Source: Hadesarchaea archaeon
GTDB taxonomy: Archaea > Hadarchaeota > Hadarchaeia > Hadarchaeales > Hadarchaeaceae
Direction of reading: 5' to 3'
Assembly (NCBI GenBank): GCA_029259175.1
Contig: JAPDJH010000009.1
Coordinates: 32,001-96,000 of the forward strand
Length of the DNA: 64,000 nucleotides
Position 1 is the first letter of the stretch, and every line of letters begins with the position of its first letter. The notes under the pieces were generated by a model, which saw only the letters and a list, made by a program, of their open reading frames with translations, was not told the DNA's origin and searched no databases. This document shows positions 1-41,728 of the stretch, piece by piece. Made by a program: the position numbers and the translations under genes.

Positions 1-717
1 CTGGAGGAAGTACTCATTCGCGACCAGCAGATCCCATGGGCGTCCGATGTCAGCCCACAGGCTGAGGGGAGAGGTGTAAATCGAGCGCCCGCTCTTTATG
101 AGAATATTCATGGAGTCGGTCAGCTCGTACTCGCCGCGCTTCGAAGGCTTGGTGCGCCTGATGGCGTCGAAGATGGCCGGATGAAAGATGTAGACCCCAG
201 CGTTTGCGGTTCGGCTCCTGATCCGCCTCGGCTTCTCGACGAGCTTGACGACCTTGCCGTCGCGCACCGTGACTATGCCGAACTGCTCGGGCTGGTCGAC
301 CTCGATGACCGCCATGAGGCCGCCGAAATCCCCATTGTCTTTGACCTCCCCGTAACGCTTGAGAAAGATATCGAGAGACTCCTGGTCGAAGAGGGTGTCG
401 CCGTTGACCACCAGCGCGTGCTCTCCACCGACGAACTCCTCGGCGAGGGAAAGAGCGTCGGCGGTTCCACGCAGCTCCTTCTGTTCAAGGTAAGTGAGGT
501 GGAGCTCCATCTGCGAACCATCACCATAGCGCTCGATTATCTGCTCCTTGCCGAAACCGACGACGAGCGCGATCTCGCGGATTCCGGCGTTTTTAAGCAA
601 CAAAAGCACGTGGTCTAGGGCTGGCTTACCGGCAACGGGCAGAAGGAACTTGGGCTTGGTGAAGGTGAGGGGCCGCATTCGGGTTCCGAGGCCTGCGGCT
701 AAGACCACCGCTTTCAC
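1..717 (-). CDS. glmU: Sugar-1-phosphate nucleotidyltransferase (archaeal bifunctional GlmU-like), 3' end runs off the window
   Basis: Manual translation from GTG at 717: MKAVVLAAGLGTRMRPLT..KPK..PVAGKP, VEKP, GEYELTD, WADIGRPWDLLVANE. Not in the ORF track because it is truncated. Confidence 0.8.
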   Translation of the reverse strand, partial: MKAVVLAAGLGTRMRPLTFTKPKFLLPVAGKPALDHVLLLLKNAGIREIALVVGFGKEQIIERYGDGSQMELHLTYLEQKELRGTADALSLAEEFVGGEHALVVNGDTLFDQESLDIFLKRYGEVKDNGDFGGLMAVIEVDQPEQFGIVTVRDGKVVKLVEKPRRIRSRTANAGVYIFHPAIFDAIRRTKPSKRGEYELTDSMNILIKSGRSIYTSPLSLWADIGRPWDLLVANEYFLQ

Positions 718-776
718 GGATGTGCACCAAAAGGAATTGAAGGGGCTGTCTAATAAGGATGACCAGGCGAGCGAGG

Positions 777-889
777 TTGAAAAATTTTTCAAGTGCTCCA
801 TTGAAAATCGTTTCAACAAGGAGGTTAAAGAAAATTCAACGAATTAATGGATTTTTTCTCAAAAAACGCTTTTATAAGCGCTTTTTTGA
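777..889. promoter_or_regulatory. Tandem palindromic operators plus an inverted repeat around the TATA box in a divergent promoter region
   Basis: TTGAAAAATTTTTCAA (777-792, perfect palindrome); TTGAAAATCGTTTCAA (801-816); TCAAAAAACGCTTTTATAAGCGCTTTTTTGA (859-889) centred on TTTATAA. Confidence 0.6.
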
Positions 890-906
890 CCAAAAATGGT
901 GCACAC

Positions 907-2334
907 GTGTTCAGAACAATTGCAAAGATCTGGATTCTGGGGCTGATCTTGGCTTCGAGCGCCCTGCCCGCAGGCGGACAGCTCGAACGGAAGAACGTGG
1001 CGTTCGTTCAGGAGTTCGAGGGCTTCAAGCTCGTCGGACAGGTCGTGGATTCCGAAACAGGTGCGCCCATTCAGAGCGCGCTGATCAAGGCGGTGTTCAG
1101 CAACGGGCGAAAAGCGCTGAGCAGGAGCGACGCCCAGGGTCGGTTCGCGGTGGGCGTATGGGGAGAAGGGGAGACCTCGTACAGGTTGGAGATCTCGGCC
1201 CGGGGGTACGACTCCAAGACGACGGAGGGGAGAGTAGTACTACACACGGCCGGAACGCACGATGTGGGCCAAATCGGACTTCACTACCATCCCTTCGACC
1301 TCTCGCTCTCGGAGCAGAGCAGATCCCTGAGCAGGGAGCAGGGAGAGTCTTGGCCCAGCGTCGAGCTCACGGTCACCCTGGAGAACCGGAACGGGTACGA
1401 CAACGCAGTCGAGCTCGGGGTTGAGGCCCCGGAGGGCATCGAAGCTGAGTTCGAAAACGCCAGGCTGCGCTTCCGCTCCCCTGTCTCGACCGTGCTCACG
1501 CTGACTCCCGGGAGCGCGCTGAGCTCGGGAACCTACACGGTGACGGTTAAGGCGTGCGACGCGTGGGGCAGGCTCGCGGCCAGCGCCTCATGCACGCTCA
1601 CGCTCAGCACCCAAACCAAGCAAACGACCACGACGGGCGGATCCGGTGGCGGGTCGGGCTCCGGCGGCGGGTCGGACAGCTCCCCTCTGGTCATCAAGGT
1701 CGTGGACGCCGCGACCGGGAGCGGGATCTCGGGGGCGAGCGTGGTCCTGAAGCGGCAGGGGACGACCGAGGTGGTCGCGAGCGGGACGACCGGGCCGGAC
1801 GGGACGGTGGAGTTCACCCCGCCGCGCGTGTGGGTGGACGCGTTCGTGAGCAAGTCCGGGTGGGTGGCGTACAACGCGTCCAGGCAGGCCGTGAGCACCG
1901 TGCACACATACTTCTACGCGGGGAGCGGGACGCGCACCTTCTACCTCTCGAACATCGGGGTGATAACCGGGCTGAAGGCGGAGCACACCACCCTCACCTT
2001 CACCCAAGTGAACGAGACTAAGCAAACCACCCTGACGGTTCAGGGGGACTACTCGAAGTCGGTGGACACGACCTACGACGTGTACTATTACCAAACCTAC
2101 ACCCCGAGGGAGGCGGTCTACCACGTGTGGACCAAACCGACCTCGGTCTCGGGCTCCGGGCAGTCCTACACGTTCAAGGGGAAGTGTCTGGTCTGGCAGC
2201 CCCCGACGGGAATCAACTTCCACCCGGGGGCGCACGGGTCCAGGCGCGTGGCGTGGAACTACTGGGGGTCGAGCTGGGCCGGCGAGCCGGGGGCGCAGAC
2301 GACGGTGACGCTGAGGCAGAAGGAAGGATACTAA
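907..2334 (+). CDS. Secreted/surface protein with two carboxypeptidase-regulatory (Cna-B-like) beta-sandwich domains and a Thr/Gly/Ser linker
   Basis: Signal-peptide-like N-terminus from GTG 907; GQVVDSETGAPIQSA and KVVDAATGSGISGASV repeats; TTTTGGSGGGSGSGGGS linker. Confidence 0.65.
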   Translation: MFRTIAKIWILGLILASSALPAGGQLERKNVAFVQEFEGFKLVGQVVDSETGAPIQSALIKAVFSNGRKALSRSDAQGRFAVGVWGEGETSYRLEISARGYDSKTTEGRVVLHTAGTHDVGQIGLHYHPFDLSLSEQSRSLSREQGESWPSVELTVTLENRNGYDNAVELGVEAPEGIEAEFENARLRFRSPVSTVLTLTPGSALSSGTYTVTVKACDAWGRLAASASCTLTLSTQTKQTTTTGGSGGGSGSGGGSDSSPLVIKVVDAATGSGISGASVVLKRQGTTEVVASGTTGPDGTVEFTPPRVWVDAFVSKSGWVAYNASRQAVSTVHTYFYAGSGTRTFYLSNIGVITGLKAEHTTLTFTQVNETKQTTLTVQGDYSKSVDTTYDVYYYQTYTPREAVYHVWTKPTSVSGSGQSYTFKGKCLVWQPPTGINFHPGAHGSRRVAWNYWGSSWAGEPGAQTTVTLRQKEGY

Positions 2335-3545
2335 ACCATTCGGTCAACAAATGTGTAACCATTGAGTGGAACATTCTCAAATTCTTCGTAAAATTTCTCG
2401 ATTAAATTCCAAGATTCATTGTCAAATTCACTAAGCTGAATCAAAACTTTAGTTGCGCCAATTCGTCCGGCTCCTGGTCCACCATGGGCTATGAGCGGAC
2501 TCCCGTTCTCCTCCGGCTTCAGCGGGCGCACCCAGCGGTTCTCGCTCGGGATCCACCCGTAGCCCTCCGTCGCGTAGTCCCCGATCCGCACCTGGTTCTC
2601 GTTCTCCTCCGGGGCCAGGAAAACCCCCTCCAGCACCACGGTCTCGCCGGGCTCCAAGGAACCGAGCGGGTGCCCCTCCTCGTCCAAGGTCGAAATCAGG
2701 GCTTTCGCCATTATGTTCTCGTCCTGGTATGGCTCCTCGACTGTCTTGAAGCGCAGAAACCTGGTTCCCTGTGTAATGACCCAGCGCCCGTTCTCGAACC
2801 GCTTTTCCAAGACTGTCTCATCTCCGCGCTCGATAGCAAGCCTCAACCATACCAGTCTGCTGTAGCGGTTGTTGCCGAGTTCGTTCGGATAGGTGGCCCA
2901 AACGGATGGACGCTCCCAGTAGAGAACGAGCGCCACTTCGTTTTCCTCGAGCCGGTACTCATACGCGTCCTCGTCGTACCAAGCCACGAACTCCCAGCGC
3001 TCCCCAGAGTAGACCTCCCGGAGGTGCTCCGCCTCCTCCGTGCCTTTAACTTTCCAACTCCACATCTGACTTCCCGGCCCAAACCTGTTGTCTGGAATTC
3101 CAACTGAGTAGTACCCAACGTGGGGCCAAGGGAGGTCGAGTTCAAGGCCGCTCAGCACCGGGTCCCCCTCCTCGCCCGCGTACGTGAACGCGCTCACGAA
3201 GTGGAAGGGCACCCAGCCCTCGGGGACGTTCTCGGGGGCGGAGACGGGGGCCGGCTCCCAGCCCGGGATCCCTGCTCCCGCGCTCCACCACACCCAGAGC
3301 GCACCCGCGAGCGCGCACGCCGTCGCGACCGCCGCGCTCCGCTTCGGAGTTCCCGGGCCGAACCCCGCGCTCGCAAACCAGGCGATTCCCAGGACGGCCG
3401 CGGCCTGGGCCCACCGCGGGAGCTCCCCGAACCCCGGGACGAGCGGGAGGAGGAAAAAGGCCGCGAGCCCGGCGACCGCGAAGATCACCGCCACCAAGAA
3501 CACAGCCGCGACGCGCCAGTTCACGGCAGACCCCTCCTCAACCAC
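2331..3545 (-). CDS. Hypothetical membrane protein (3 N-terminal TM segments, large soluble domain)
   Basis: 404-aa ORF with hydrophobic N-terminal segments; stop overlaps the convergent gene. Confidence 0.6.
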   Translation of the reverse strand: MVEEGSAVNWRVAAVFLVAVIFAVAGLAAFFLLPLVPGFGELPRWAQAAAVLGIAWFASAGFGPGTPKRSAAVATACALAGALWVWWSAGAGIPGWEPAPVSAPENVPEGWVPFHFVSAFTYAGEEGDPVLSGLELDLPWPHVGYYSVGIPDNRFGPGSQMWSWKVKGTEEAEHLREVYSGERWEFVAWYDEDAYEYRLEENEVALVLYWERPSVWATYPNELGNNRYSRLVWLRLAIERGDETVLEKRFENGRWVITQGTRFLRFKTVEEPYQDENIMAKALISTLDEEGHPLGSLEPGETVVLEGVFLAPEENENQVRIGDYATEGYGWIPSENRWVRPLKPEENGSPLIAHGGPGAGRIGATKVLIQLSEFDNESWNLIEKFYEEFENVPLNGYTFVDRMV

Positions 3546-4630
3546 TCTCTGAAGAAAACGTCGTGTATCCTGCCCTCATCAAGCACCCCTTTGTGCTCAA
3601 GCGATTTAACCACGCGCTGTACGTGGGACTGCGTTTTCAGCCCGTACCGCTCCACGAAATCGCTGGAGAAAATCGATACGCCCTCTTCCGCCGCAAGCCC
3701 CCTCAAAAATCTCCGCTGGAGCGGCGTCAGGTGATCCATCAGGTCCAAGTAGTTCTTCTGCTCGTGTGCTATGATCCTGTCGACGGCTTCCCGCACCTGA
3801 GACTCGCCCGTAACCTTTCTCGAGCTGAACCAGAGCTCGTAGCAGAGCTGCTGGGTGTAGTACGGGTGGCCGCCCGTCAAATCCAGTATGGCGTCCAGCG
3901 CCTCATCGCTTATCCGCCCGCCGGTCTTCTCGAACTTGTTGGCGATGAACTGCTTGAACTCCTGCCTGGGGATGGGGCCGAGCTCCATGGGCTTGCTGAA
4001 CCTGTAGAAAGGCCTGCTCTCATCACTGAACATGCGTGTCAGGATGTGACGCTTGCTCCCCATGAACACGTACGTGACGTTTCTGTGGCGCTGGAACTTC
4101 GACCTCATCAGCTTCTCGATAGCAGTCCCATTCAGATCGGACACGTCTTGGAATTCGTCGAACGCGAGCACCATGCGTCTGCCCTTCTTGCCCGCGAAGC
4201 TCTCTGCGAAATCGAGGGCTTCCCCGAGTTCCTCGTCGGTAATGTCTCTGGCCATCTCGAGCTTGACGTTCCCTTCCGGCGTGAAAACCACGCTGACCCT
4301 CAGACTCTTGAAGAACCCGGGCAGCTCGAGCACTGCCCTCTTTAACCTGTCCAGTTTGGTGTAGGCCGAGTTCACGATCGTCTCGATGATCCTTGTGGCC
4401 AGCGCGCGTTTTGAGTCCACGGCCGACACGTCAACCCGGGCGTGGTAGACATCCTTTCCCAACCGCGAGAACAGTTCCTCGACCAGCGAGCTCTTCCCCA
4501 TCAGCCGCGGTGAGTAGAGAACCACGCTTTTTCCAGACAGCAGGTCGCGTTTCAGCTCCTCGAGTTCCCGCTTCCGGTTGACAAAGTTCGCCCCCGTAAC
4601 AATGGGCCCGTAAACGAACGGATTCCTCAT
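3521..4630 (-). CDS. Archaeal ATPase (ATPase_2 / AAA family) with C-terminal wHTH
   Basis: NPFVYG..FVNRKREL, Walker A PRLMGKSS, Walker B LAFDEFQ, TGGHPYY. Confidence 0.85.
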   Translation of the reverse strand: MRNPFVYGPIVTGANFVNRKRELEELKRDLLSGKSVVLYSPRLMGKSSLVEELFSRLGKDVYHARVDVSAVDSKRALATRIIETIVNSAYTKLDRLKRAVLELPGFFKSLRVSVVFTPEGNVKLEMARDITDEELGEALDFAESFAGKKGRRMVLAFDEFQDVSDLNGTAIEKLMRSKFQRHRNVTYVFMGSKRHILTRMFSDESRPFYRFSKPMELGPIPRQEFKQFIANKFEKTGGRISDEALDAILDLTGGHPYYTQQLCYELWFSSRKVTGESQVREAVDRIIAHEQKNYLDLMDHLTPLQRRFLRGLAAEEGVSIFSSDFVERYGLKTQSHVQRVVKSLEHKGVLDEGRIHDVFFREWLRRGLP

Positions 4631-4632
4631 TT

Positions 4633-4681
4633 TATACACTTCTGTATAATACGGATGTGTATAGGAATATTTATACTTTTT
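4633..4681 (-). promoter_or_regulatory. TATA box and 31-bp imperfect palindrome upstream of the ATPase
   Basis: TATACACTTCTGTA-TAA-TACGGATGTGTATA (12 of 14 arm positions match); minus-strand AAAAAGTATAAATA. Confidence 0.55.
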
Positions 4682-4960
4682 GGTCTAGTGGTCGTCTTGC
4701 GCCTCCAAAAGCTGGACCAACTCGAGAAGTTCTACGAGCGGCCAAATCCGGTGGGCGGTATCATAGCTGAGAGGAACCCGCGGTCTCAATAACCGGAAAG
4801 GTTTTGCACGCGCCCTCCATCCCCGCCAACAAAGCGCCCGCGCCTGCCAAGTGGTCAGAACAGCAGAAAGGAGCTTTGATCCTGACCGTCACCCTAGAGA
4901 ACCACAACGGGTGCGACTACTAGCCAAAACCGCCGACTCTTCAGCCGGAACGGTGCCGCA

Positions 4961-6310
4961 TCACTTCTTTTTTACCACACTCTCCACCACGCCCGCCGCC
5001 CTGCGCAGCAATTCTTTCGCACCCGCCTCGTCTTCGGCTTCGGCGGTTACCCTGATATACGGCTCCGTGCCCGAGGGCCTGACGAGCACCCATCCGCTCT
5101 CAGCATCAACCCGCACGCCGTCCGCCGTCGAAATCTCCCCCTTCGCCTCCCGCGGCAGGAGCTCCTCAACCTTTCGCATGACCTCTCCTTTTCGCTCGTT
5201 CGGGCACGCGATCTTTTCCCTCAGCGTCACATAGTCGGGCAGCTCGTCGACCAGCTCAGATAGCTTGCGCCCCGTCGACTCCAGCAGCTCCACCACCTTC
5301 AGAGCGGCGAGCGGGCCATCGGGCGCCAGATGAACCTCCGGAAAGATCCACGAACCGCTGGGCTCGCCTCCGAACACCGCCCTGTGCTCGACCACCGCCT
5401 GCGCCACTGCCACGTCACCAACCCGAACGCGAACAACGCGGCCTCCCCGCTCCTCGACCGCGTCTTCCACGACCCTCGAGGCGTCGACCGTGGTAACCAC
5501 CACGTCGCCCGGCTTTTTAACCTGAAAAGCGGCCATCAAAGCCAGCAACTTATCGCCCACAAACCTTCCCTTCTCGTCAACGGCACCGATGCGATCGGCA
5601 TCCCCGTCGTGGGCCAGACCCACACCAACTCCCAGCTCCCGCACCGTTTTCGCCAAAACCTGCAAGTTTTTCTCATTCGGCTCCAGCCCACGCGCGGGAA
5701 ACAGCCCATCGGGATTGGAGTTCAACGCGATGACCTTGCACCCTCGCTCCCTCAGCAGCTGCGGAGTGACGACCGACGCCGCCCCATTGCCGCAGTCCAC
5801 CACCACCGTGAGCGTACTCTCGAACCCCACCCTTTCAGCCATAACTTGCTCGTACCGCGAGAGCAAGTCGATTTCTCTACATGTCCCGATCTCGTCCCAG
5901 CCGACCGTCCGCCACCGGCGCCCAAAATAGAGCTCCTCAATCTTCTCCTCCTCAGCCGGTGTGTAGGCCATCCCGTCCCGATTCCAGCATTTCAGGCCGT
6001 TGTACTCAGGGGGATTGTGGGACGCCGTTATCATGGCGCCCGACTTGGCCCCCACGAGCTTCGTCCCCAGCGCGAGGACGGGGGTGGGAACCATGCCTGC
6101 TAGCGCAACATCGCACCCCCCTGACAGCAAGCCAGCTACGAGCGCGTTCTCGAGCACCGGACCGGATAGCCTCGGGTCGCGGCCAACGACCACCGTCCCA
6201 GAATTGCCAAGAACGGTCGCAATAACTCGGCCCAAATCCGCAAACAGCTCTGGCGTGATCTCCTTTCCAAATATCCCCCGAACACCGGACGTTCCGAAAA
6301 GCTTTCCCAC
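4961..6310 (-). CDS. glmM: Phosphoglucosamine mutase / phosphomannomutase
   Basis: LFGTSGVRG, ITASHNPPEYNG, DGDADR, RPSGTEP; start at GTG 6310. Confidence 0.9.
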   Translation of the reverse strand: MGKLFGTSGVRGIFGKEITPELFADLGRVIATVLGNSGTVVVGRDPRLSGPVLENALVAGLLSGGCDVALAGMVPTPVLALGTKLVGAKSGAMITASHNPPEYNGLKCWNRDGMAYTPAEEEKIEELYFGRRWRTVGWDEIGTCREIDLLSRYEQVMAERVGFESTLTVVVDCGNGAASVVTPQLLRERGCKVIALNSNPDGLFPARGLEPNEKNLQVLAKTVRELGVGVGLAHDGDADRIGAVDEKGRFVGDKLLALMAAFQVKKPGDVVVTTVDASRVVEDAVEERGGRVVRVRVGDVAVAQAVVEHRAVFGGEPSGSWIFPEVHLAPDGPLAALKVVELLESTGRKLSELVDELPDYVTLREKIACPNERKGEVMRKVEELLPREAKGEISTADGVRVDAESGWVLVRPSGTEPYIRVTAEAEDEAGAKELLRRAAGVVESVVKKK

Positions 6311-6323
6311 CCACTGGCCTCCT

Positions 6324-6932
6324 TCACGAAGCTGAACCCGGACGGGCAAGCAACTTGCTCTTGTAGACCTCCACTCGCCGAATCGGGTGAAAGCGCTTGG
6401 CCTCCTTGTAGATGTCCGCAGCGAGCTTCCCGAGCACCATCTCCTGTACAAACTGGTCGAAGTTGCGCTCGCGTGCTTTCGCCGTCACGACCTCCCGGAT
6501 GGCCTTGCGTATCTGCTTGACCTTCGAGCTCTGAGCGCGTCCGAGCGTTATCGCCATGGCAGTCACGCGCAGCGTGTACCCGTCTTTCGTGGTCACCGTG
6601 GTTATGTCCTCAGCCTTTCTGCTCCTGCGCCTGATCTGACTCTTCACGTAATCGCGAGCCATTTCGTGCCCAACAAAATCCGTTTTTGCGTTCGTGTCAT
6701 CCACCGTTCTGATTTGAAAGTATAGCTTGATGTGCGACTTGGAAAAGTCGTTTATCAGATCGCCCAGAGTCGTCTCGAAAACCCTCCCGATGAGGTGCTG
6801 AGGATCGGACGCCGGGGTCTCCCCTATAGGGGTATTGCCGAACATGGAGGGCGCCAGCACCTCGTACCATGCCTTCTCACGCCAGCTCTTGACCCTCTTC
6901 CGTCTTTCTGCAGCCGACGCCATCTCAACCAC
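6324..6932 (-). CDS. rps3ae: 30S ribosomal protein S3Ae (eS1)
   Basis: KAWYEVLAP..F, GRVFETTLGDL, IRRVEVYK. Confidence 0.95.
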   Translation of the reverse strand: MVEMASAAERRKRVKSWREKAWYEVLAPSMFGNTPIGETPASDPQHLIGRVFETTLGDLINDFSKSHIKLYFQIRTVDDTNAKTDFVGHEMARDYVKSQIRRRSRKAEDITTVTTKDGYTLRVTAMAITLGRAQSSKVKQIRKAIREVVTAKARERNFDQFVQEMVLGKLAADIYKEAKRFHPIRRVEVYKSKLLARPGSAS

Positions 6933-8415
6933 CCATTTGCCTGATTTTCTGACGGACGAGTTCGGGCCACGCCTCCATTTCCAATCCGTGCTGAGCCAAG
7001 AATCCCACGACCCAGCGGCTCGTCCCGAAACCGCAGCAGCCCGTCCACATCTCTCTCCCCTTCGCTTCCTTAATCTTAAAGCTCTCGGTGAACTTGGTGC
7101 GGTGAACGTTGTAAGAGCCTATCTCGAGCCAATCCTTTTTGTACGGGAGCCAGACCTCGAGATCGTACGTGGCGACTTTGCGCGGGTCTGTGCTCGTCTC
7201 GCGTGTTCCCTCCCGCATGTAGAAGGGGGTCGCTTCCGTGACCCTCCACTCTATCTCCAAGTCATCGAGAATCTCTATACTGTGATCCAACACCTTGCCC
7301 CTCAGCTCCGCCACATCGTCCGGGCTTCCCAGCATCACAAACTCAATACGCCTGAACTCTTGGGTCCGGATCAATCCCTCCACGCCGCCGCCCTCCCAGC
7401 GGTAGGTCCACCCGCTGCGGTCGAACTGTTTGATCGGCGTCTGCTCAAGCGAAACGACCTTCCTCGAGAACTGCTGGTAGAAGGGCTCGCACTGCGCCGG
7501 GGCCAGCACATACGCCGGGTCCTTAAGAACCTTCCTCAGTTCATCCGCAGAAATCCTCTTCATCAGCTTGAGCTGCCGTTTGAAATTCTCAAAGCTCTCT
7601 GGATCGCGGGGCGGCGGAGAAACGTAGTACATGCCCTCCGGAACGCCATCGAGATATCCGGGCATTCGCTGCATCACCTCCAGCGGAATCAGCTTCGGAA
7701 ACATCACCTCCTCGAACCCCAACGGTCTTGCCACGCGCTCGATGATGATCTCCTCCAAAGCGCGAAGCAAAGCAGTATAGGGGTGTAAGTAAATCCACTG
7801 CCCGCGGCCGGGGAACTCCACGATCCAGCCCCGCTTCACTGCCTCCTCGAACGGATCGGTGGTGAACCGGTGCTCCCTGGGTTTGCTTTGCCTCACGACC
7901 ACGATTTCTTCCTTGGCCTGCACAACGGAGGGCTGCAACAGTTGCTCCACTGAGGACACCAGCCGATCGACCATCCGCCCGCGAATATCGGTCTCGGAGA
8001 GATCTGTGAGTCGCAGGATAATCTGGCCACCAGAAATCTCACACCCAAGCTTTCGGAGTTCTGGCTCGACCGATGACGGGATCTCGCCAACCGAAAACAC
8101 TATGGTATAAGTGGGTGCCCCGATCTCCCTCAGACCTATCCGGTGGGCCCGACCGAGCTCGCTGGAAAGGGCCTTGCCAATCCGCAACAGGGCATCGTGG
8201 GCCCGCACGTATCTGCCGGACTCTATCCACACGCGAAGCTTGTTGCCCTCGATCTCCCATCTCCTCAGCCGAGCCGCTTCGTCCTCCTTGCCCTTGGGAG
8301 CGCCCTTCACCAACAGCTGTTTTGAATCTTCGAACACGCTCTTGACACGATCCGCCACGGCCGAGAGATCACGGCTGAAACCGAGCACGCCCTCTAGCTC
8401 AAACTTCACTTCCAC
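6925..8415 (-). CDS. serS: Seryl-tRNA synthetase, methanogenic (type 2)
   Basis: SGRYVRAHDALLR, PAQCEPFY, WTYRWEGGG, EFRRIE, TGCCGFG. Confidence 0.9.
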   Translation of the reverse strand: MEVKFELEGVLGFSRDLSAVADRVKSVFEDSKQLLVKGAPKGKEDEAARLRRWEIEGNKLRVWIESGRYVRAHDALLRIGKALSSELGRAHRIGLREIGAPTYTIVFSVGEIPSSVEPELRKLGCEISGGQIILRLTDLSETDIRGRMVDRLVSSVEQLLQPSVVQAKEEIVVVRQSKPREHRFTTDPFEEAVKRGWIVEFPGRGQWIYLHPYTALLRALEEIIIERVARPLGFEEVMFPKLIPLEVMQRMPGYLDGVPEGMYYVSPPPRDPESFENFKRQLKLMKRISADELRKVLKDPAYVLAPAQCEPFYQQFSRKVVSLEQTPIKQFDRSGWTYRWEGGGVEGLIRTQEFRRIEFVMLGSPDDVAELRGKVLDHSIEILDDLEIEWRVTEATPFYMREGTRETSTDPRKVATYDLEVWLPYKKDWLEIGSYNVHRTKFTESFKIKEAKGREMWTGCCGFGTSRWVVGFLAQHGLEMEAWPELVRQKIRQMGG

Positions 8416-30706: not shown

Positions 30707-31201
30707 ATGAACAAATCGAATGCTGACCAACGCGTGCTCCTCTACGATCCACAGCGTTGTACCGGTTGTCGTTGCTGCGAGATGGCGTGTGCCTATCAGA
30801 ACTTCGGCTCGCTCACGCCAATAAAAAGCCACATCCGGATAATCGCGAGCGAGGATGGAATCCACCGCGATGCCGTGTACTGCTGGCACTGCGAGGAACC
30901 GGTGTGTGCCGCGGCATGTCCGGTGGATGCGATAGAAAAGGACGAGCGCACGGGCTGGGTGCGGGTGAATCCGCTTAAATGCATCGGCTGTCGATCGTGC
31001 ACATATGCATGTCCTGTGGCTGCCGCATGGTTCGATGAAGATCGGCGGACGGCTGCGAAGTGCACCTTCTGTGACGGGGATCCGCTCTGTGCCCGTTTCT
31101 GCTCGCCACAAGCCATACGAGTCGCCACCCGAGCGGAGGCCTCAGCCGCGCTCAAACAAATTCTCGGAGGTGCCGCGAGTGGAGGCGGAACGAGTCCTTA
31201 A
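30707..31201 (+). CDS. 4x[4Fe-4S] electron-transfer protein (HycB/CooF/DmsB-like)
   Basis: CTGCRCCEMAC, CWHCEEPVCAAACP, CIGCRSCTYACP, KCTFC..C..C. Confidence 0.9.
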   Translation: MNKSNADQRVLLYDPQRCTGCRCCEMACAYQNFGSLTPIKSHIRIIASEDGIHRDAVYCWHCEEPVCAAACPVDAIEKDERTGWVRVNPLKCIGCRSCTYACPVAAAWFDEDRRTAAKCTFCDGDPLCARFCSPQAIRVATRAEASAALKQILGGAASGGGTSP

Positions 31202-31823
31202 AGCTGCTGGAGCAATCCAGGTGGTAAAAAAACGTGATCGAAAAGTGGAAGCCGCGATCAGGCCCGACCGTATACGGACGGTTGCAAGCAAGTTGTGTTC
31301 CCATGGCGCACGTTTCATCATCATTGCCGCGGCGGATTCGGGGCTCGATATCGACTTGATCTATCACTTTGATTTGGATGGGCTAGTAGTTGCTGTAAAA
31401 ACGAGAGTGCCTAAAGAGTCCCCAGAAATCGACTCAATAAAGGATATAGTGCCCGGAGCTGAATGGGCTGAGCGCGAAGCTTCAGATCTCTGCGGTGTAC
31501 GCTTCCGCGGGGGCACAAACGAGCCATTGGTTCTTCCCAAAGAGGGTGCTCTGGAGACTCCTCCTCTCACGCGAGCGTTTCGGGTGCTGCCAGCCGAGGT
31601 GGCCCCCGTGGCGGAGTCCATTGCGAGCGTTGGGGCAACAGCCCCGCTGACTTCGCTTATGGAGCGCCGACGCCAAGAGGCAGGACTCGAGGCCAAAGCA
31701 CCCATGGTCTACGCCACCGAAAAGGGGACTAAGGAATTGACAGAACTGATCAAGCAAGCCAGCTTCACCGAGCGCGGAGGGTTCGATCCCGAGCGTAAAA
31801 AGTTGAGAGGTGTGTACAAGTGA
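31179..31823 (+). CDS. NuoC/EchD-like hydrogenase subunit with C-terminal extension
   Basis: LIYHF, DSIKDIVPGAEWAEREASDLCGVRF; GGAGG upstream of GTG 31179. Confidence 0.8.
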   Translation: MEAERVLKAAGAIQVVKKRDRKVEAAIRPDRIRTVASKLCSHGARFIIIAAADSGLDIDLIYHFDLDGLVVAVKTRVPKESPEIDSIKDIVPGAEWAEREASDLCGVRFRGGTNEPLVLPKEGALETPPLTRAFRVLPAEVAPVAESIASVGATAPLTSLMERRRQEAGLEAKAPMVYATEKGTKELTELIKQASFTERGGFDPERKKLRGVYK

Positions 31824-32689
31824 AGGAGTACGCTGTCTACTGGGGCTGCATGATTCCTCATCGTCTGCCCTCGATAGAAATCGCGGCCAGATATGTGCTC
31901 GAAAAGCTTGGTGTTCGGGTGCGCGAGGTTGAAAACTACACTTGTTGCCCGGATCCGATCATTGGGCGATTTATCGATAGAAAAACTGCCCTGACACTTT
32001 CTGCACGCAATCTAGCACTGGCCGAAGAACTGGGTCCAGAACTTCTAGTTCTCTGTAATGGGTGCTTCGAGACACTGATCGAAGCCGTAGAGGCTCTGCA
32101 CGATGAAAACACGCGCACTGAAATTAACCAAATCCTAGAAAAAGTTGGCAGGAAATACCAAGGAGCTATACAAGTCCGCCACGTGGTAGAAGTGCTGCAC
32201 GACGATGTTGGGCTAAACCGGATAAAAGAGGTCGTTCAGAAGCCATCGAGGGTCAAGCTCGCCGTCCACTACGGATGTCACCTTTTCCGCGAACCCAATG
32301 GTGGGGACATCTGGAGGAAACCAAAACAATTCGAAGAGCTCCTGCGTGTGATCGGAGGCAATCCAGTACTGTGTGACCACAACAGGCTGTGCTGCGGTTT
32401 TCCGACGTCACATGTGGATCCGGAGTATTCGTTGCGCATGAATCTGTTGCCTAAGATGCGGTGCTACAAACAACTAAAAATAGAAGCTGTGGTTACTGTG
32501 TGTCCAGCATGCACCATTCAGATGGAAACTGGACAGCGCATGCTCCGCAAGTTTGGCTTGGAGACCTCCGTTCCGATAGTTCACTTGATGGAGCTCATGG
32601 CACTTGCTTTTGGAATGAGGCCCCAAGAGCTTTCGCTCAAGGTTCACCGCAGCCCCGTCGAGGATTTTGCTAGGAGGGTGTTCGGATGA
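31820..32689 (+). CDS. hdrB: Heterodisulfide reductase subunit B
   Basis: Two CCG domains: YWGC, TCCPDP, CNGC, HYGCH, LCCG, CPAC. Confidence 0.9.
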   Translation: MKEYAVYWGCMIPHRLPSIEIAARYVLEKLGVRVREVENYTCCPDPIIGRFIDRKTALTLSARNLALAEELGPELLVLCNGCFETLIEAVEALHDENTRTEINQILEKVGRKYQGAIQVRHVVEVLHDDVGLNRIKEVVQKPSRVKLAVHYGCHLFREPNGGDIWRKPKQFEELLRVIGGNPVLCDHNRLCCGFPTSHVDPEYSLRMNLLPKMRCYKQLKIEAVVTVCPACTIQMETGQRMLRKFGLETSVPIVHLMELMALAFGMRPQELSLKVHRSPVEDFARRVFG

Positions 32690-33819
32690 GCGAAATCGCG
32701 CGCTACGGTCCATATCATCCCATCCACCTTGAGCCGGAGGTCTACGAGGTTCATGTTCGCGAAGGCAGGATTTCGGATGTACGTATCGAGCAGGGCTTCA
32801 CTCACCGGGGGATTGAGCGCCTTCTAGAGCAGCAGTCAGTGAAGCACGGGGTTCTCTTGGCAGAACGGGTCTGCGGATTGTGCTCTCAGGCCCATGCGGA
32901 GGCCTACTGCACTGCGGTGGAAAACACGCTCAAAATCGAGCCGCCGGAGCGTGCGGCACATATTCGAACGCTTGCTTTCGAGCTCGATCGAATCCATAGC
33001 CACCTCATGTGGTTCGTGCTTTTGTTTCACTCCGTGCGCGACACTGAGGCATTAACCGTGGTGCTGAACCGGCGAGAACGGCTGATGGATCTAATCGAAT
33101 CGCTGTTCGGGAATCGGGTTCACTTCTCCATCAACACTCCGGGTGGGGTAAAACGTGACTTGCCCGCAGATGCGGATCAGCTTGTGCGCCGAACGATGGA
33201 GCACGTGCGCAATCTCGCAGATTTCGTGAAAAACAAGGTAGAAGCGCACTCGCAACGACTGAGTGGAATCGGTGTATTGCCAAAAGAGAAAGCTAGAGCT
33301 TACGGGGTTGTAGGACCTGTGCTCCGCGGGTCGGGGATCGCCAGCGACATAAGGCGGGACGATCCGTATCTGATCTATGACGAATTGGAGTTTGACATCC
33401 CGACGGAGGACTCCTGTGACGTACTGGGACGAACGCGTGTGCGGGTTGCCGAGCTCTACGAGTCCATCCGGATAGTTGAGCAGACCGTGAAAAGAATGCC
33501 GGTAGGCGAACTCTCGGTGGAGTTCCCATTCCCGTTGACCAATGAGGACTGCGGGCGAGTGGAGGCTCCCCGTGGAGAGCTCATCTACTTCGCGCGGCTG
33601 AGGGGGACCAGCTTTCCGGATCGTGTGAAGCTCAGACCGCCCACCTATGTCAACGACCCAGCCGTCGCCGAGATGCTCAAAGGAGAACCACTTGAAAATC
33701 TGCCGCTAGTCCTCGAGAGCATCGACCGCTGCATTTCATGCACTAATCGCGTGACAGTAATTGATGAACAAAACGGGCATGTCAAAAAAATCTCGCTGGA
33801 GGATCTGGTGCGATGGTAG
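32686..33819 (+). CDS. Group 4 NiFe hydrogenase large subunit
   Basis: GPYHP, HRGIE, L1 ERVCGLC, EAPRGE, L2 DRCISCTNR plus C-terminal extension. Confidence 0.9.
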   Translation: MSEIARYGPYHPIHLEPEVYEVHVREGRISDVRIEQGFTHRGIERLLEQQSVKHGVLLAERVCGLCSQAHAEAYCTAVENTLKIEPPERAAHIRTLAFELDRIHSHLMWFVLLFHSVRDTEALTVVLNRRERLMDLIESLFGNRVHFSINTPGGVKRDLPADADQLVRRTMEHVRNLADFVKNKVEAHSQRLSGIGVLPKEKARAYGVVGPVLRGSGIASDIRRDDPYLIYDELEFDIPTEDSCDVLGRTRVRVAELYESIRIVEQTVKRMPVGELSVEFPFPLTNEDCGRVEAPRGELIYFARLRGTSFPDRVKLRPPTYVNDPAVAEMLKGEPLENLPLVLESIDRCISCTNRVTVIDEQNGHVKKISLEDLVRW

Positions 33820-34670
33820 ATGAGCTCCGAGTATATCGGTTCAACGCGGGGTCGTGCAACGGTTGTGATATTGAGGTCGTCAGTGCTCTAGCGGAGCACT
33901 ACGGTCTTCAAAACGTCCGGGTGGTAGAAGAGGTGGAAGAGGCAAACACCATGGTAGTTGTGGGTGTCGTAACGACGAAGACCGAGTCCCATCTGAGAGC
34001 AGCTTATGAAAAACTCCAAGATCCCAAGCTCGTTATTGCCGTGGGGACGTGTGCCGTTTCGAGTGGAGTGTTCGATGGCTCCTACAGTGTCCGGAATCCG
34101 CCTGAGACATACATCCCAGTGAGAGCATATCTAAACGGGTGCCCCCCTAGCCCTCACTCGATCGTCTCAGCTCTCCGCGCCCTTATGGCCCGCCAAGACT
34201 CCGAGTGGACAGCGCCCAAGGGCTACAGGGGATTGCCGGTGGTCGATGCCGAGAAATGCACCGCGTGCGGAGCTTGCGCTATCGCCTGTCCCGCTAGCGC
34301 TATCGAAATCGAAGAAGCCGACGAAGGCAAAATCGTGCGCTACTTGCACGATCGCTGCATCAGTTGTGCCACCTGCGAGCTCGTGTGTCCGGAGGACGCG
34401 GTGAGGCTGAAGGAAGAGCGTCATCCGCTGGTGGCGGAACGAGAAAAAGCTAGGGTGGAAACGAAGTTCACAACGGTGCAGTGCCCGGTGTGTGGTAGTG
34501 GGCACATAACGGAACGGCATCTGGACGTGATTGTTGAACGGCTGAAAGAAAAAGAGGCGCTGAAAGCCGCTGCTCAGGAACTGCGCGAGCGATCGAAGCT
34601 CGAGAGGACTTGCAAGATAAGGCAGTTGGCTGTGGGCAAGCAATTGCTTTTTAAGCTCGGCTATGGATAA
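33813..34670 (+). CDS. Hydrogenase small subunit (NuoB-like) fused to a 2x[4Fe-4S] NuoI-like domain
   Basis: GSCNGCDIE, GTCA, GCPP; CTACGACAIACP, CISCATCELVCP. Confidence 0.9.
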   Translation: MVDELRVYRFNAGSCNGCDIEVVSALAEHYGLQNVRVVEEVEEANTMVVVGVVTTKTESHLRAAYEKLQDPKLVIAVGTCAVSSGVFDGSYSVRNPPETYIPVRAYLNGCPPSPHSIVSALRALMARQDSEWTAPKGYRGLPVVDAEKCTACGACAIACPASAIEIEEADEGKIVRYLHDRCISCATCELVCPEDAVRLKEERHPLVAEREKARVETKFTTVQCPVCGSGHITERHLDVIVERLKEKEALKAAAQELRERSKLERTCKIRQLAVGKQLLFKLGYG

Positions 34671-37926: not shown

Positions 37927-38001
37927 GCCGCCGTAGCTGAGCCTGGTTACAGCGGCCGCCTTGTAAGCGGCAGATCGTGGGTTCAAATCCCACCGGCGGC
38001 T
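37927..38001 (+). tRNA. tRNA-Thr(TGT), CCA not encoded
   Basis: GCCGCCG/CGGCGGC acceptor stem; GCCGC-CTTGTAA-GCGGC; GTGGG-TTCAAAT-CCCAC. Confidence 0.95.
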
Positions 38002-38003
38002 CA

Positions 38004-38656: not shown

Positions 38657-39205
38657 ATGAAACATCTAGACGAAAAGGCTTTGAAGGTGCTCACCTACTT
38701 CTTTGAGAACCCGCGAGAAGAAGTTTACCTGCGGGAACTGGCACGCCGGCTACGGATGAGCCCAGCAACTGTTATGCGAGCCCTACGTCTCCTCATTAGA
38801 GAAGGCTTGATAACCAAGCGCCCGGAGAAGCACGCCACCTATTTCAAGGCCAACCTTAACCCATACTTCAGAGAGTTGAAGAAAGCGCATACGGTTTCCA
38901 AAGTCTTGCGCTCCGGAATTCTTGAACTCATCAACGAGAAATCGGTAGGTCTAAGTTCAATACTGCTCTACGGGAGCGCCGCTAAAGGCGAAGACGATCG
39001 GGGAAGCGACTACGACTTTCTGGTGATTGCCGCAAGATGCGCCCTGAGAAGCAGTGAACTCTCGAAACTTCTAGGGAGAGAGGCCACCCTACAGGTCTTC
39101 GACGTGGCGGGCTGGAAACGAGTAGCAAAGCGAAACCGAGCATTCTACCTAGACGTTATAAGCAATTCCATTGTCCTTTATGGTGGAAAGCCGGTGATCG
39201 ATTGA
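38657..39205 (+). CDS. wHTH + minimal nucleotidyltransferase (MNT) antitoxin
   Basis: YLRELARRLRMSPATV HTH; LYGSAAKG...SDYDFLV. Confidence 0.85.
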   Translation: MKHLDEKALKVLTYFFENPREEVYLRELARRLRMSPATVMRALRLLIREGLITKRPEKHATYFKANLNPYFRELKKAHTVSKVLRSGILELINEKSVGLSSILLYGSAAKGEDDRGSDYDFLVIAARCALRSSELSKLLGREATLQVFDVAGWKRVAKRNRAFYLDVISNSIVLYGGKPVID

Positions 39206-39642
39206 CGCTTAGGGATTGTCTTGCGCAAAGGAAGTTGCGCAGGATACGGCCGGATCCGCTCAAAGCCCGCAAATCGCTGGAAGCTGCGTCTGCAAAACTG
39301 AAAAAGGCCAAGGAACTCCTCGCCGATGAGCATTACGATGCAACCCTTCTGTACGCGTACACGAGCATGTTCAGCTCGGGAAGAGCTCTCCTTTACAAGG
39401 ACGGCATCCAAGAGAAATCCCACTACTGTTTGGCTAGGTATCTAGAGGAGAGGTACGTGAAGAGAGGAAAGTTGAATCCAAAGATCATCACCTTCCTCGA
39501 CTCTTTCCGTGAGGAGCGGCACGCGATAATGTATGGGTTCGAGGAGGTTGAAATCCGGCGCGAAGAGGCTGAGGAAGCCATCTCGGTTGCGGAAGAATTC
39601 CTTGGGAGAGCTAAAGAACTCGTGGGTAAGCGTACGCGCTGA
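39202..39642 (+). CDS. HEPN-domain toxin
   Basis: AYTSMFSSGRALL, KSH, REERHAIMY; start overlaps the MNT stop. Confidence 0.85.
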   Translation: MTLRDCLAQRKLRRIRPDPLKARKSLEAASAKLKKAKELLADEHYDATLLYAYTSMFSSGRALLYKDGIQEKSHYCLARYLEERYVKRGKLNPKIITFLDSFREERHAIMYGFEEVEIRREEAEEAISVAEEFLGRAKELVGKRTR

Positions 39643-39690
39643 ATGAAGAAGCTTGCTATTGCTTATCGTCTTTGGTTCTCTGCCGTGGTT

Positions 39691-39733
39691 TCTGTCCTTA
39701 TACTTTTGATAGGAAGCCCACTAGTGGCTCCAC
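39691..39733 (+). repeat. Cassette boundary repeat R2 (degenerate)
   Basis: TCTGTCCTTATACTTTTGATAGGAAG-CCCACTAGTGGCTCCAC. Confidence 0.7.
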
Positions 39734-39795
39734 TATATTTTTTAATAAATAGTTAACTTAATATATAGTTAAGTTTTAGGAATAACGGTGTTGAG

Positions 39796-40713
39796 ATGTG
39801 GCCTGCTGAATGGCTAGCAGAGAAATACTTTGAGATCAAAGAGCTGCCGCGAATAGTCGATCGAAACATGGTTGCAAAAATTTGGAAAACTAACAAAAAC
39901 TACGCGAGTGTCACCTTGCACGAGATGCGCGAAGCTTTACTTATAGACAGATTGAAGAGAGGAGCATATCTATCGGTACCGCCTGAGAAATGGCTGCCGG
40001 TGCACTCGTTCCTGATGCGAACTCCAGAAATCGCTCCAGCTCTATCTAAACTATTACAGGACTCGATGAACGATATTGAGTGTCTGGTGCTCTATGGCTC
40101 GCGGATTTGGGGGGGAGATGAGCTAAGCGACTGGGATTTCTTCACCGTTGTTTCCTCCGAAAAGTCGAAGAATGCGATGAGGACCAAACTCCTCAAAATC
40201 AGGCAAACAAATCTTCGACTTGATGTGGAGATATTGTCTGTTCAAGACTTCGAGTTTCTCCTACGCAAAGACCCGATTTTTCTCAAACTCGTAGCGTGCG
40301 AGTGCAGGCCCATAGTAGATACTGGTATTCTTGGAATTGCCAAGGCAATCGAGATTAAACCAGAACACGTTGCCGTTGAAATGTTGGCCGCGAAAGAAAA
40401 TATTCTACAGGGCATGGCATGCGCGCGACGAGGCGAAAGCAGTATCGCCTGCTACTGGCTCACCCGCGGGATCCGGCGAACGCTTGCTGCGGCCCTCTCC
40501 ATGTGTGAAAACTTCTCCGGGAAAGCTTTGGAAGAGGAATTCAAAGCACGTTTTCCTCAGTATGAGCAACTTCGGGTGATCGTTAAAAAAATTGGCTTGG
40601 AACGAGAAACACATATACCAAAAAAATTCCTTAGAGAACTTGTTAACAGAACAATAGTCGAGTGGGAACTGGTAGCAAAGGAGTTGCGCAGATGGGGAAA
40701 AAGCGCAAAATAA
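39796..40713 (+). CDS. wHTH-MNT protein with C-terminal helical (HEPN-like) domain
   Basis: N-terminal LIDRLKRGAY wing; LYGSRIWG...SDWDFF; helical C-terminus. Confidence 0.7.
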   Translation: MWPAEWLAEKYFEIKELPRIVDRNMVAKIWKTNKNYASVTLHEMREALLIDRLKRGAYLSVPPEKWLPVHSFLMRTPEIAPALSKLLQDSMNDIECLVLYGSRIWGGDELSDWDFFTVVSSEKSKNAMRTKLLKIRQTNLRLDVEILSVQDFEFLLRKDPIFLKLVACECRPIVDTGILGIAKAIEIKPEHVAVEMLAAKENILQGMACARRGESSIACYWLTRGIRRTLAAALSMCENFSGKALEEEFKARFPQYEQLRVIVKKIGLERETHIPKKFLRELVNRTIVEWELVAKELRRWGKSAK

Positions 40714-40949
40714 AGAAACCAGCAGCGCTTCTGGCACAAAGAAAAGCACACTTGCAACTTGCAGAGGAATTTTCCAAACTCGTACCAACTGAAGTAATTA
40801 AACATTGGGAAAAAGAGGCCGAGCGCTTCGAACGCGAAGCTAGACGGCTTATGACAGGGTTACCCACGAGCTACCTAGAAGAAATAGAAAAGATAAGTGA
40901 TGAAGAAGCGAAAAAGCTCTTACGAAGGAAGCGAAAAGAGATAATCTAG
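40692..40949 (+). CDS. Small basic/helical hypothetical protein, partner of the upstream MNT
   Basis: 85 aa from ATG 40692, overlaps the upstream gene, ends just before R3. Confidence 0.55.
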   Translation: MGKKRKIKKPAALLAQRKAHLQLAEEFSKLVPTEVIKHWEKEAERFEREARRLMTGLPTSYLEEIEKISDEEAKKLLRRKRKEII

Positions 40950-40968
40950 ACATTCGCGTAGCGAATCT

Positions 40969-41010
40969 TCTGTCCTTTACTTTCATTAAGGATCCCACCG
41001 GCGGCTCCAC
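40969..41010 (+). repeat. Cassette boundary repeat R3
   Basis: TCTGTCCTTTACTTTCATTAAGG-ATCCCACCGGCGGCTCCAC; 16 nt identical to 37987-38002. Confidence 0.9.
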
Positions 41011-41057
41011 AAAAAATAGTTTATAGGTAAGGATTTCTTACATTAATTAGTGATGGG

Positions 41058-41309
41058 ATGAAAGGAAGCGTGGTAAAAATTACCTCAAAAGGACAACTTA
41101 CCCTCCCCGTGGAAATCCGGAGAGAGTTAGGGGTTAGGAAAGACGATTATCTTTACGTCACAAGAGCTGGTGAGCTAATTCTGATGAAGCGGATCGGAGT
41201 GAATCCTAAGGAAATTTTAGATACCTTTCAGCAAGTCGCAAAGGAGAGCGGGCTGACGAGAAAAGAACTAAACCGGGTCATCCGCGAGATCAGGCGGGCA
41301 AAAGAATGA
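41058..41309 (+). CDS. AbrB/MazE-family antitoxin
   Basis: KITSKGQLTLPVEIRRELG. Confidence 0.9.
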   Translation: MKGSVVKITSKGQLTLPVEIRRELGVRKDDYLYVTRAGELILMKRIGVNPKEILDTFQQVAKESGLTRKELNRVIREIRRAKE

Positions 41310-41728
41310 ATAAAAAGCCAAGAGTTTTCTTGGACACGAACGTTTTGATATCGGGAATGGTATTCAGAGGAAACGAGAGGAAACTGCTGGACGCGATTAT
41401 TGATAACCGATTGAAACTGGTAATAAGCGACGATGTTTTGAACGAAACAGAAATGGTCTTCAGGAAAAAATTCCCGCAGCACCGTGTTCTTTTCCCGTTA
41501 TTTTTGCAGCTCGTGAAGCACGAAAGAATACCGAGAAAAGCGTATAGAAAAGCCGAAAAGACATATTCTGGACTCCTCCGTGACAAAACAGACGCCCACA
41601 TCCTTGCGGCCGCTGTCGTGGGCAAGTGCGATTATCTAATTGCCGGCGACAAAGAACTCCTTTCCCTGAAGAAAGTTGGTCTCACAAAAATAATTCAAAC
41701 GTGGGAGTTGCTGAGAGAATTGAAATAA
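41306..41728 (+). CDS. vapC: PIN-domain (VapC) toxin
   Basis: FLDTNVLIS, E, DKTDAHIL, GDKELL. Confidence 0.9.
   Translation: MNKKPRVFLDTNVLISGMVFRGNERKLLDAIIDNRLKLVISDDVLNETEMVFRKKFPQHRVLFPLFLQLVKHERIPRKAYRKAEKTYSGLLRDKTDAHILAAAVVGKCDYLIAGDKELLSLKKVGLTKIIQTWELLRELK

Follow-up and report, generated by a model that had tools for sequence, protein, structure and literature searches.

A NuoC-like hydrogenase subunit with an HdrC-related C-terminal tail, a putative HdrB anchor in Hadarchaeota and Bathyarchaeia

Group-4 hydrogenases associated with HdrB have already been published on genomic grounds (PMC9723716). That article lists Ehd, Ehe, Drh and Ehg, together with an 'Ehd-like' group, as potentially HdrB-interacting. 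Ehd is assigned there to Methanomethylicia (after Borrel et al. 2019), Ehe to Culexarchaeia and Ehg to Nezhaarchaeia, the 'Ehd-like' group includes Bathyarchaeia, and Drh is the 'disulfide-reducing hydrogenase' of Methanocellales, which has no antiporter (after Lyu and Lu 2015). Excerpts of its supplement give the Ehd gene order as EhdC, EhdD/hdrC, EhdE/hdrB and EhdF/[NiFe], contain an entry 'EheH / HdrC?' for Ehe, and present drhH as a small gene beside hdrB in Drh that was originally unannotated and bears non-standard locus tags. According to an excerpt of PMC6046458, Drh, a putative membrane-associated disulfide-reducing hydrogenase, shows upregulation in syntrophic coculture. Ehg and Ehd-like complexes are mentioned for a Methanonezhaarchaeia strain in culture and for relatives of that strain (PMC12700198, in excerpt), and hdrB2 lies within the 'fpo' operon of one Bathyarchaeia family (PMC8407382, in excerpt). 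These earlier proposals of HdrB-associated group-4 hydrogenases were drawn from gene neighbourhood alone.

The cluster considered here was found in a 64-kb window (the whole stretch of DNA that was analysed). Judged from its sequence, the product of one of its five genes belongs, as a NuoC-like subunit, to a group-4-type [NiFe] hydrogenase module and bears the last ~70 residues of HdrC without the two-cluster ferredoxin domain. This tail probably anchors HdrB, so that a non-bifurcating H2:disulfide oxidoreductase would be formed. A literature search retrieved no report of a NuoC-HdrC fusion or of the C-terminal third of HdrC on a NuoC-like subunit, and no description of a five-gene form free of membrane subunits in Hadarchaeota; the accessible parts of PMC9635834, PMC11237513, PMC11291895 and PMC12350162 contained nothing on the five-gene cluster. 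Within that published kind of system, the fusion looks new, and so does the five-gene form, which is apparently soluble.

The fusion gene and its distribution

Flanked by a TatD-family gene on one side and a PALP (cysteine-synthase-like) gene on the other, five tightly packed genes are carried on the + strand. They encode, in this order, a HycB-like polyferredoxin, the NuoC-tail protein, HdrB, a [NiFe] large subunit and a NuoB-NuoI fusion. The NuoC-tail gene is included in a long ORF (31005-31823) that overlaps the upstream ferredoxin gene. Its likely start is the GTG at 31179, which is preceded by GGAGGT and delimits a gene at 31179-31823 (+ strand) coding for 214 aa; the identical database protein P0001 is 217 aa long, consistent with a start at the GTG in 31170. 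At the other end, the GTG of hdrB overlaps the TGA of the fusion gene by 4 nt.

Residues 1-135 (31179..31583, + strand) form a NuoC-like domain of the 30-kDa / HycE N-terminal / MbhK type, as indicated by Pfam, AF2 and Foldseek. PF00329 (Complex1_30kDa) covered residues 27-135 with 63.6 bits for a cut-off of 22.5, leaving ~79 residues on the C-terminal side, and this score above the Pfam gathering cut-off, together with the NuoC fold, places the protein in the NuoC family. The top Foldseek matches of the whole protein were 6u8y_K and 7z0s_E (E 1.3e-8 for both) and 6cfw_K. The pLDDT of the AF2 model was about 86-95 across residues 1-110 and 62-65 at residues 121-140, the linker region, whose last part (residues 136-142; 31584..31604, + strand) corresponds to variable, gapped columns in alignments A1 and A5. 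The remaining ~72 aa constitute the HdrC-derived tail, the proposed HdrB anchor, assigned by homology (residues 143-214, coded by 31605-31820, or 31605..31823 with the stop codon, + strand). The first-pass annotation had described a NuoC-like subunit with a C-terminal extension of about 70 aa, which is what was found behind the PF00329 domain, including the peptides that it quoted; it had placed the beginning of this region at 31600, whereas the reading frame begins at 31602.

A scan of one genome per species yielded 18 loci, inspected with flanks of up to 10 kb on each side (less at contig ends). The tail was present in 17 of them, belonging to Hadarchaeota, Bathyarchaeia and one Nitrososphaerota MAG, while the eighteenth (L018, Chloroflexota) displayed a plain NuoC without tail and without hdrB. 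All 17 tail-bearing loci had hdrB directly downstream of the fusion gene; the large subunit came next in each of the 16 loci that reached that far, and in 16 of the 17 the polyferredoxin preceded the fusion. A canonical hdrC was encountered neither in the window nor in the flanks of the 18 loci when their ORFs were searched with an HdrC HMM. Four loci (L002, L012, L014 and L015) contained a second nuoBCD-like set, and the plain NuoC genes of these and of L018 gave no match to a tail HMM. HycI protease genes adjoined the cluster in L014 and L016. In the latter locus, an antiporter-like gene also lay upstream, and NuoH stood between the large subunit and the genes for NuoI and NuoB, which are separate there. 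Membrane subunits (NuoH-like or antiporter-like) were found neither in the window cluster nor in its flanks, and a Pfam scan of 42 flanking ORFs from seven loci detected them in L016 only.

A word-indexed protein search with the window protein gathered 17 clusters, and the same search with a wider family alignment gathered 43 protein clusters (90% identity) at E <= 1e-15. Public annotation has no record of the tail: where named, the 43 clusters bear no other name than NuoC or 'Ni,Fe-hydrogenase III component G', and their sole precomputed domain is PF00329. The tail is nevertheless strongly constrained. It accounts for a third of the protein and for 23 of the 46 invariant columns of alignment A1 (those in residues 143-214), 25 of its 72 columns are invariant among the 13 tails of alignment A2 (13 of the 17 rows of A1, the near-duplicates P0010, P0012, P0015 and P0016 being omitted), and its key residues are retained in fusions that are only about 30-36% identical overall.

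Relationship of the tail to HdrC

On sequence grounds, the tail is a homologue of the C-terminal third of HdrC. TIGR03290 (HdrC) was the sole non-NuoC family of NCBIfam matched by the fusion protein, and tail residues 3-57 aligned with its profile positions 88-142 of 144 (E 0.001). The scores were 17.3 bits for the whole protein, which covered positions 84-142 of 144 only, and 19 bits for the tail, both far below the HdrC cut-off of 160. With phmmer, the tail matched residues 124-182 of 5odc_C, the 184-residue HdrC of Methanothermococcus thermolithotrophicus (E 2.8e-4), and 9sfi_E more weakly; the same PDB list included designed ankyrin/armadillo repeat proteins, of which no single stretch passed on its own. 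A profile of 17 full-length family members gave 51 matches in the PDB, distributed over 47 NuoC-type chains and four HdrC chains (5odc_C, E 8.8e-6; 8rvu_c, 8.8e-5; 8rvv_C, 1e-4; 9sfi_E, 4.1e-4), the latter all aligned in the same register over HdrC residues 118-182. A profile-profile comparison with hhalign between the 13 tails of A2 and 25 canonical HdrCs (A4) returned a probability of 98.0 and E 2.6e-13 over 70 columns. The claim of the first-pass annotation that the NuoC-like subunit carries the C-terminal tail of HdrC is thus borne out by TIGR03290, phmmer, the family profile, hhalign and shuffled controls alike.

The reverse comparison, the fifth independent kind to agree, recovered the same relationship. 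An HMM built from the 25 canonical HdrCs was run against all ORFs of at least 40 aa from the 18 loci and the window, and it matched all 17 tail-bearing ORFs plus the window ORF (E 2e-11 to 4e-4), always with HMM positions about 111/121-187, that is, the last third. The window tail was the weakest family member in this test (18.0 bits). When scored separately for the chance control it reached 22.0 bits, a value attained by none of 2000 shuffles (maximum 6.0), and the reversed tail sequence scored -0.9. When 21 diverse fusion tails were aligned jointly with 25 HdrC C-termini, the ~70 common columns were essentially free of gaps. Residues G152, R165, G169 and L170 were conserved at >=80% in both groups, and A145, P156, P174, P175, L184, E186, F196, G201 and L209 at >=50%; the spacing motif given for HdrC in the first-pass annotation was roughly right. 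The invariant His that follows the conserved Gly in HdrC was not retained in the fusion tails.

Structure prediction was less informative. Within the whole-protein AF2 model the pLDDT of the tail was moderate (54-80), and Foldseek searches of the PDB with this model returned NuoC matches only, which say nothing on the tail. When modelled alone, the tail had a low-confidence pLDDT of 61.6; Foldseek then gave 12 matches at E <= 10, of which the top seven were HdrC chains (best E 0.2, TM 0.42), a result not counted as independent evidence because Foldseek also uses sequence. A Pfam search with the tail alone gave no match.

A profile built from the tail only was compared with 1.84 billion representatives and gave 29 matches at E <= 1e-3. 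These comprised NuoC-tail fusions, seven small proteins made up of the tail only, the stand-alone tails being 64-100 aa long, and one canonical HdrC (P0045, E 3.2e-4), whose TIGR03290 score of 205 bits exceeds the cut-off of 160. Four long proteins with 7-19 short repeated matches (P0022, P0026, P0027 and P0033) were considered spurious. In this search the tail had two partners only, the ferredoxin domain of HdrC or the NuoC domain.

The fusion protein itself is, by its sequence features, not an HdrC, because its tail lacks Fe-S cysteines: it contains two Cys in total and no CxxC motif, and the tail is devoid of any cysteine motif. The conserved C-terminal segment of HdrC (residues ~118-184) is present and the ferredoxin domain, with its two CxxCxxCxxxCP motifs for two [4Fe-4S] clusters, is absent, so that solely the non-cluster C-terminal segment is carried.

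Two trivial explanations of these observations were considered and rejected. The resemblance to HdrC could be due to chance or composition, the tail being an unrelated NuoC extension, as might be suspected from the modest single-sequence scores (19-24.5 bits) and from the fact that the top PDB match by full-sequence E-value in phmmer was a designed repeat protein. This is very improbable in view of the hhalign E-value, the single register of the four HdrC chains, the recovery of all 18 fusions in the same region by the reverse HMM, the shuffles and the practically gap-free joint alignment. The fused ORF could also be an assembly or frameshift artefact that joined nuoC to a truncated hdrC, and the tail end of L017, which lies in a separate 42-aa ORF, suggests that frame errors or splits do occur. 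For the family as a whole this can be practically dismissed, the single-ORF architecture being found in 16 of 17 independent MAG loci and the fusion architecture recurring in the 43 protein clusters.

Partner subunits and proposed mechanism

The first gene of the cluster (30707..31201, + strand) encodes a HycB/DmsB-type polyferredoxin of 164 aa, a candidate electron wire, with Pfam domains Fer4_7 and Fer4_11 and partial NCBIfam matches to HybA, DmsB and HydN. Its 17 Cys leave room for four [4Fe-4S] clusters. Its best PDB matches (8c0z_C, 1.2e-28; HycB3 7qv7_A, 3.7e-16; HycB 7z0s_B, 1.2e-12) indicate a resemblance to the Fe-S wire subunits of AOR/WOR5, of HDCR (HycB3) and of FHL (HycB).

The gene following the fusion (31820..32689, + strand, GTG start) encodes an HdrB-like catalytic subunit of 289 aa with two CCG domains (two stretches of PF02754). 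It aligned with 5odc_B over residues 3-286 (E 6.6e-64), and its nearest PDB chains were methanogen HdrBs over their full length. Ten Cys were invariant in 17 sequences (C10, C42, C43, C79, C82, C153, C191, C192, C228 and C231) and form two C...CC...CxxC sets, as expected of CCG domains. The protein scored 252 bits with TIGR03288, under the equivalog cut-off of 345, above which CoM-S-S-CoB would be implied as the substrate.

The large subunit (32686..33819, + strand; 377 aa; PF00346 and PF00374) is of the group-4 type (NuoD/HycE/MbhL-like) and matched 7z0s_E (8.1e-63) and 6cfw_L (6.6e-59). It displayed RxCGxCxxxH at residue 61, DxCxxCxxR at residue 347 and a C-terminal extension of 22 aa, such as HycI-type proteases cleave off. 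Both nickel-binding motifs were kept in all 15 large subunits checked, with extensions of 14-26 aa. The last gene (33813..34670, + strand) encodes 285 aa in which a NuoB-type small subunit (PF01058, residues 15-124; MbhJ 6cfw_J, residues 7-121) is fused to a NuoI/HycF-type 2x[4Fe-4S] domain (Fer4, residues 142-196; HycF 7z0s_F, residues 134-268).

Both nickel motifs of a group 4 [NiFe] hydrogenase are hence present, without membrane subunits in the cluster. None of the five proteins displayed a Kyte-Doolittle 19-residue window >=1.6, a control MFS transporter encoded nearby showing 75 such windows, and with no predicted membrane segment the five-gene version of the window looks soluble. The module may conceivably still dock to membrane subunits whose genes lie in another part of the genome, given that membrane attachment is the norm for group-4 hydrogenases, that NuoH and antiporter-like genes occur in L016 and that four loci have a second nuoBCD-like set.

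In the proposed scheme, the tail would hold HdrB on the group-4 hydrogenase module. H2-derived electrons would leave the [NiFe] site for the NuoB cluster and the two NuoI-type clusters, then travel through the HycB-like four-cluster ferredoxin to the non-cubane clusters of HdrB, where CoM-S-S-CoB or another disulfide would be reduced; neither HdrA nor flavin-based bifurcation would be involved. In the HdrABC structure that Wagner and colleagues described in 2017, the C-terminal segment of HdrC (residues ~118-184) is said to lie on HdrB. It had been suggested that the tail would explain the missing hdrC, a gene absent from the window and from the inspected flanks. The tail cannot account for the loss of the two [4Fe-4S] clusters of HdrC, for which the upstream HycB-type polyferredoxin is the likelier electrical replacement. 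In methanogens, the ferredoxin domain of HdrC provides residues Y81, T79, Y84, E94 and K98 of the HdrB active-site interface (PMC13518236, in excerpt). As this domain is missing, HdrB would here lack those interface residues unless another subunit substitutes. This speaks against the scheme, as do the lost invariant His of HdrC, the low HMM score of the window tail, the moderate AF2 confidence of the tail and the sub-threshold TIGR03288 score of HdrB.

The fusion likely arose by deletion of the ferredoxin-coding part of hdrC, as the Ehd order of EhdC, hdrC, hdrB and [NiFe] large subunit suggests. An hdrC-hdrB pair would have stood between nuoC and nuoD, as in that published order; loss of the 5' two-thirds of hdrC would then have fused the remnant in frame to nuoC.

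Complex I NuoC subunits often have lineage-specific C-terminal extensions. The tail could, with such precedents, be homologous to HdrC and still not hold HdrB, serving instead to stabilise the hydrogenase module (NuoC to NuoD/NuoI) or to bind the polyferredoxin, with HdrB loosely associated or separate and merely co-transcribed; the only moderate AF2 confidence for the tail in the whole-protein model fits this as well. We regard it as unlikely, given that the tail-profile search found no third partner domain, that hdrB adjoins every fusion with a fetched locus, and that plain NuoC genes, even those of the same loci, do not match the tail HMM. The physical hydrogenase-HdrB complex suggested in the first-pass annotation agrees with this genomic coupling, namely the constant downstream hdrB and the 4-nt overlap. 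Complex predictions of HdrB (A3) with the tail (A2) scored 0.48, 0.50 and 0.43, and one unrelated control 0.55, so that these scores weigh on neither side of the binding question. A stronger contender, which we hold to be a real possibility if short of probable, is that the complex exists and is not an H2:CoM-S-S-CoB reductase, acting on another disulfide or sulfur carrier or producing H2, a direction that an ion gradient could drive in membrane-bound relatives. It would accord with the sub-threshold TIGR03288 score, with the NuoH and antiporter-like genes of L016, with the lack of mcr, hdrA, CoM and CoB genes in the 64-kb window, and with PMC9723716, where the substrate in the non-methanogenic Culexarchaeia is argued to be an unknown disulfide. 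Against another substrate stand the full-length similarity of HdrB to methanogen HdrBs and the Mcr-type genes reported in some Hadarchaeota (excerpts of PMC8407382 and PMC9635834).

Returning to the tail as HdrB anchor, a broader generalisation comes close to an even chance without quite attaining it: the last ~65 residues of HdrC may be an autonomous, portable HdrB-docking module, existing naturally in three forms, as the C-terminus of complete HdrC, as a fusion to the NuoC-like subunit of group-4 hydrogenases and as a stand-alone protein of 64-100 aa, by which an HdrB unit could be plugged onto different electron-input machines. Hadarchaeota and Bathyarchaeia would then have obtained a soluble, HdrA-free and non-bifurcating H2:disulfide oxidoreductase from a group-4 hydrogenase that shed its membrane arm. 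The presumed docking arm of HdrC fused to a hydrogenase subunit constitutes sequence-level evidence for HdrB as a built-in subunit, and through it a hypothesis drawn from gene neighbourhood becomes a structural prediction that is precise and testable. It also suggests a route by which non-methanogenic subsurface archaea (Hadarchaeota, Bathyarchaeia) might use H2 to reduce disulfides with neither HdrA nor bifurcation.

Comparison with known systems

The last ~65-70 residues of HdrC (5ODC chain C; TIGR03290) aligned essentially without gaps with the tail and shared with it the positions G, R, GL, PP, L, F and G(F/Y)D. Like the fusion gene, hdrC is positioned before hdrB. The N-terminal two-[4Fe-4S] ferredoxin domain of HdrC is, in contrast, absent from the fusion, where the NuoC domain takes its place.

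Drh resembles the present cluster in being a group-4-type [NiFe] cluster with hdrB inside and without ion-antiporter subunit, and direct reduction of the heterodisulfide by H2 was proposed for it, a scheme similar to the one envisaged here (PMC9723716). It is called 'putative membrane-associated' in the available part of PMC6046458, whereas the five proteins of the window had no predicted membrane segment.

With the membrane-bound Ehd, Ehe, Ehg and Ehd-like hydrogenases, the cluster shares the co-location of hdrB with a group-4 large subunit, observed here in 16 of 16 loci reaching it. In Ehd, moreover, hdrC stands before hdrB and the large subunit, which is the place of the tail in the window cluster (PMC9723716, in excerpt). 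L016 resembles these hydrogenases in displaying NuoH, NuoI, NuoB, HycI and an antiporter-like gene around NuoC-tail and hdrB. According to the same excerpts of PMC9723716, their clusters have a separate hdrC ('HdrC?' in Ehe) and an antiporter subunit. In the window cluster, only the NuoC-fused tail is left of hdrC, NuoB is joined to NuoI, there is an additional HycB-like polyferredoxin, and membrane subunits are not encoded.

The formate hydrogenlyase of E. coli (7Z0S) supplied the best relatives of the large subunit (HycE) and of the NuoI-type domain (HycF), and HycB is a more distant relative of the polyferredoxin. In that enzyme, HycB connects FdhF, a soluble catalytic partner, electrically to the hydrogenase, and a like function is proposed for the polyferredoxin of the window. 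The partner is a formate dehydrogenase there and HdrB here; the window cluster lacks membrane subunits, and its NuoC, which bears the HdrC tail, forms a protein of its own apart from the large subunit.

Genomic surroundings of the cluster

Upstream of the cluster, the same gene set was encountered in three Hadarchaeota loci from the one-genome-per-species scan (L005:7487-9425, L009:3457-5354 and L013:7328-9295), and consisted of a regulator of the AsnC type, a short ORF of unknown family, a member of the IF-2B family and a small protein of Fe-S assembly (PF01883). Locus L004 also displayed the IF-2B-family gene upstream, within the part of its upstream ORFs taken in by the scan. In the window and in locus L001, a TatD-family gene occupied the upstream position in place of the AsnC/IF-2B/PF01883 set. 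The cluster of L004 was itself interrupted between its large-subunit and NuoB-NuoI genes by a 486-aa ORF (L004:12644-14101) with a Cas12f1-like TNB domain, which is TnpB-like.

Four genomes harbored a second nuoB/C/D-like set a few kb from the cluster (L002:2135-5349, L012:12272-14423, L014:4-1083 and L015:7-1107), in which NuoC was devoid of the tail. This second set is probably a conventional membrane complex.

Elsewhere in the window, positions 1-8000 displayed a G+C content of 0.59-0.61, against ~0.46-0.58 across the remainder. A small defence- or toxin-antitoxin-like cluster, with one gene each for an HTH protein, a protein with a HEPN domain and one with a PIN domain, was located at 38657-41725, and a single tRNA-Thr (TGT) lay just upstream of it (37927-38002).

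A membrane-bound version

A Nitrososphaerota MAG (L016:2-5604) displayed a membrane-bound version of the cluster, in which an antiporter-like gene was followed by NuoC-tail, HdrB, large subunit, NuoH, NuoI, NuoB and a HycI protease. NuoB and NuoI were encoded by separate genes, and no polyferredoxin gene was found within the stretch 2-5604 of this locus.

Split, joined and stand-alone tails

In a Bathyarchaeota MAG (L017:10001-10514), the NuoC-tail match was made up of two separate pieces, the final part of the tail being held by a separate ORF of 42 aa. A protein of the same length from the database searches, P0037, was similar to this ORF. The split in L017 may be genuine, or it could stem from a frameshift or from a sequencing error. 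In P0029, a predicted protein of 142 aa, the HdrC-like tail continues in a single frame into HdrB, of which the N-terminal 80 residues are present. P0029 represents either a tail-HdrB fusion that occurs naturally or a frame error in a short fragment.

The tail-profile search also gathered seven proteins of 64-100 aa (P0036, P0039, P0041, P0042, P0043, P0044 and P0046) that contained little besides the HdrC C-terminal tail, and these matched the HdrC model TIGR03290 at positions ~78-144 only. Several of them opened with a PLRK-like motif resembling the end of a NuoC domain. The seven may be split forms of the NuoC-tail fusion, or they may correspond to the small genes listed as 'HdrC?' and drhH in the clusters of the HdrB-associated group-4 hydrogenases Ehe (Culexarchaeia) and Drh (Methanocellales), respectively.
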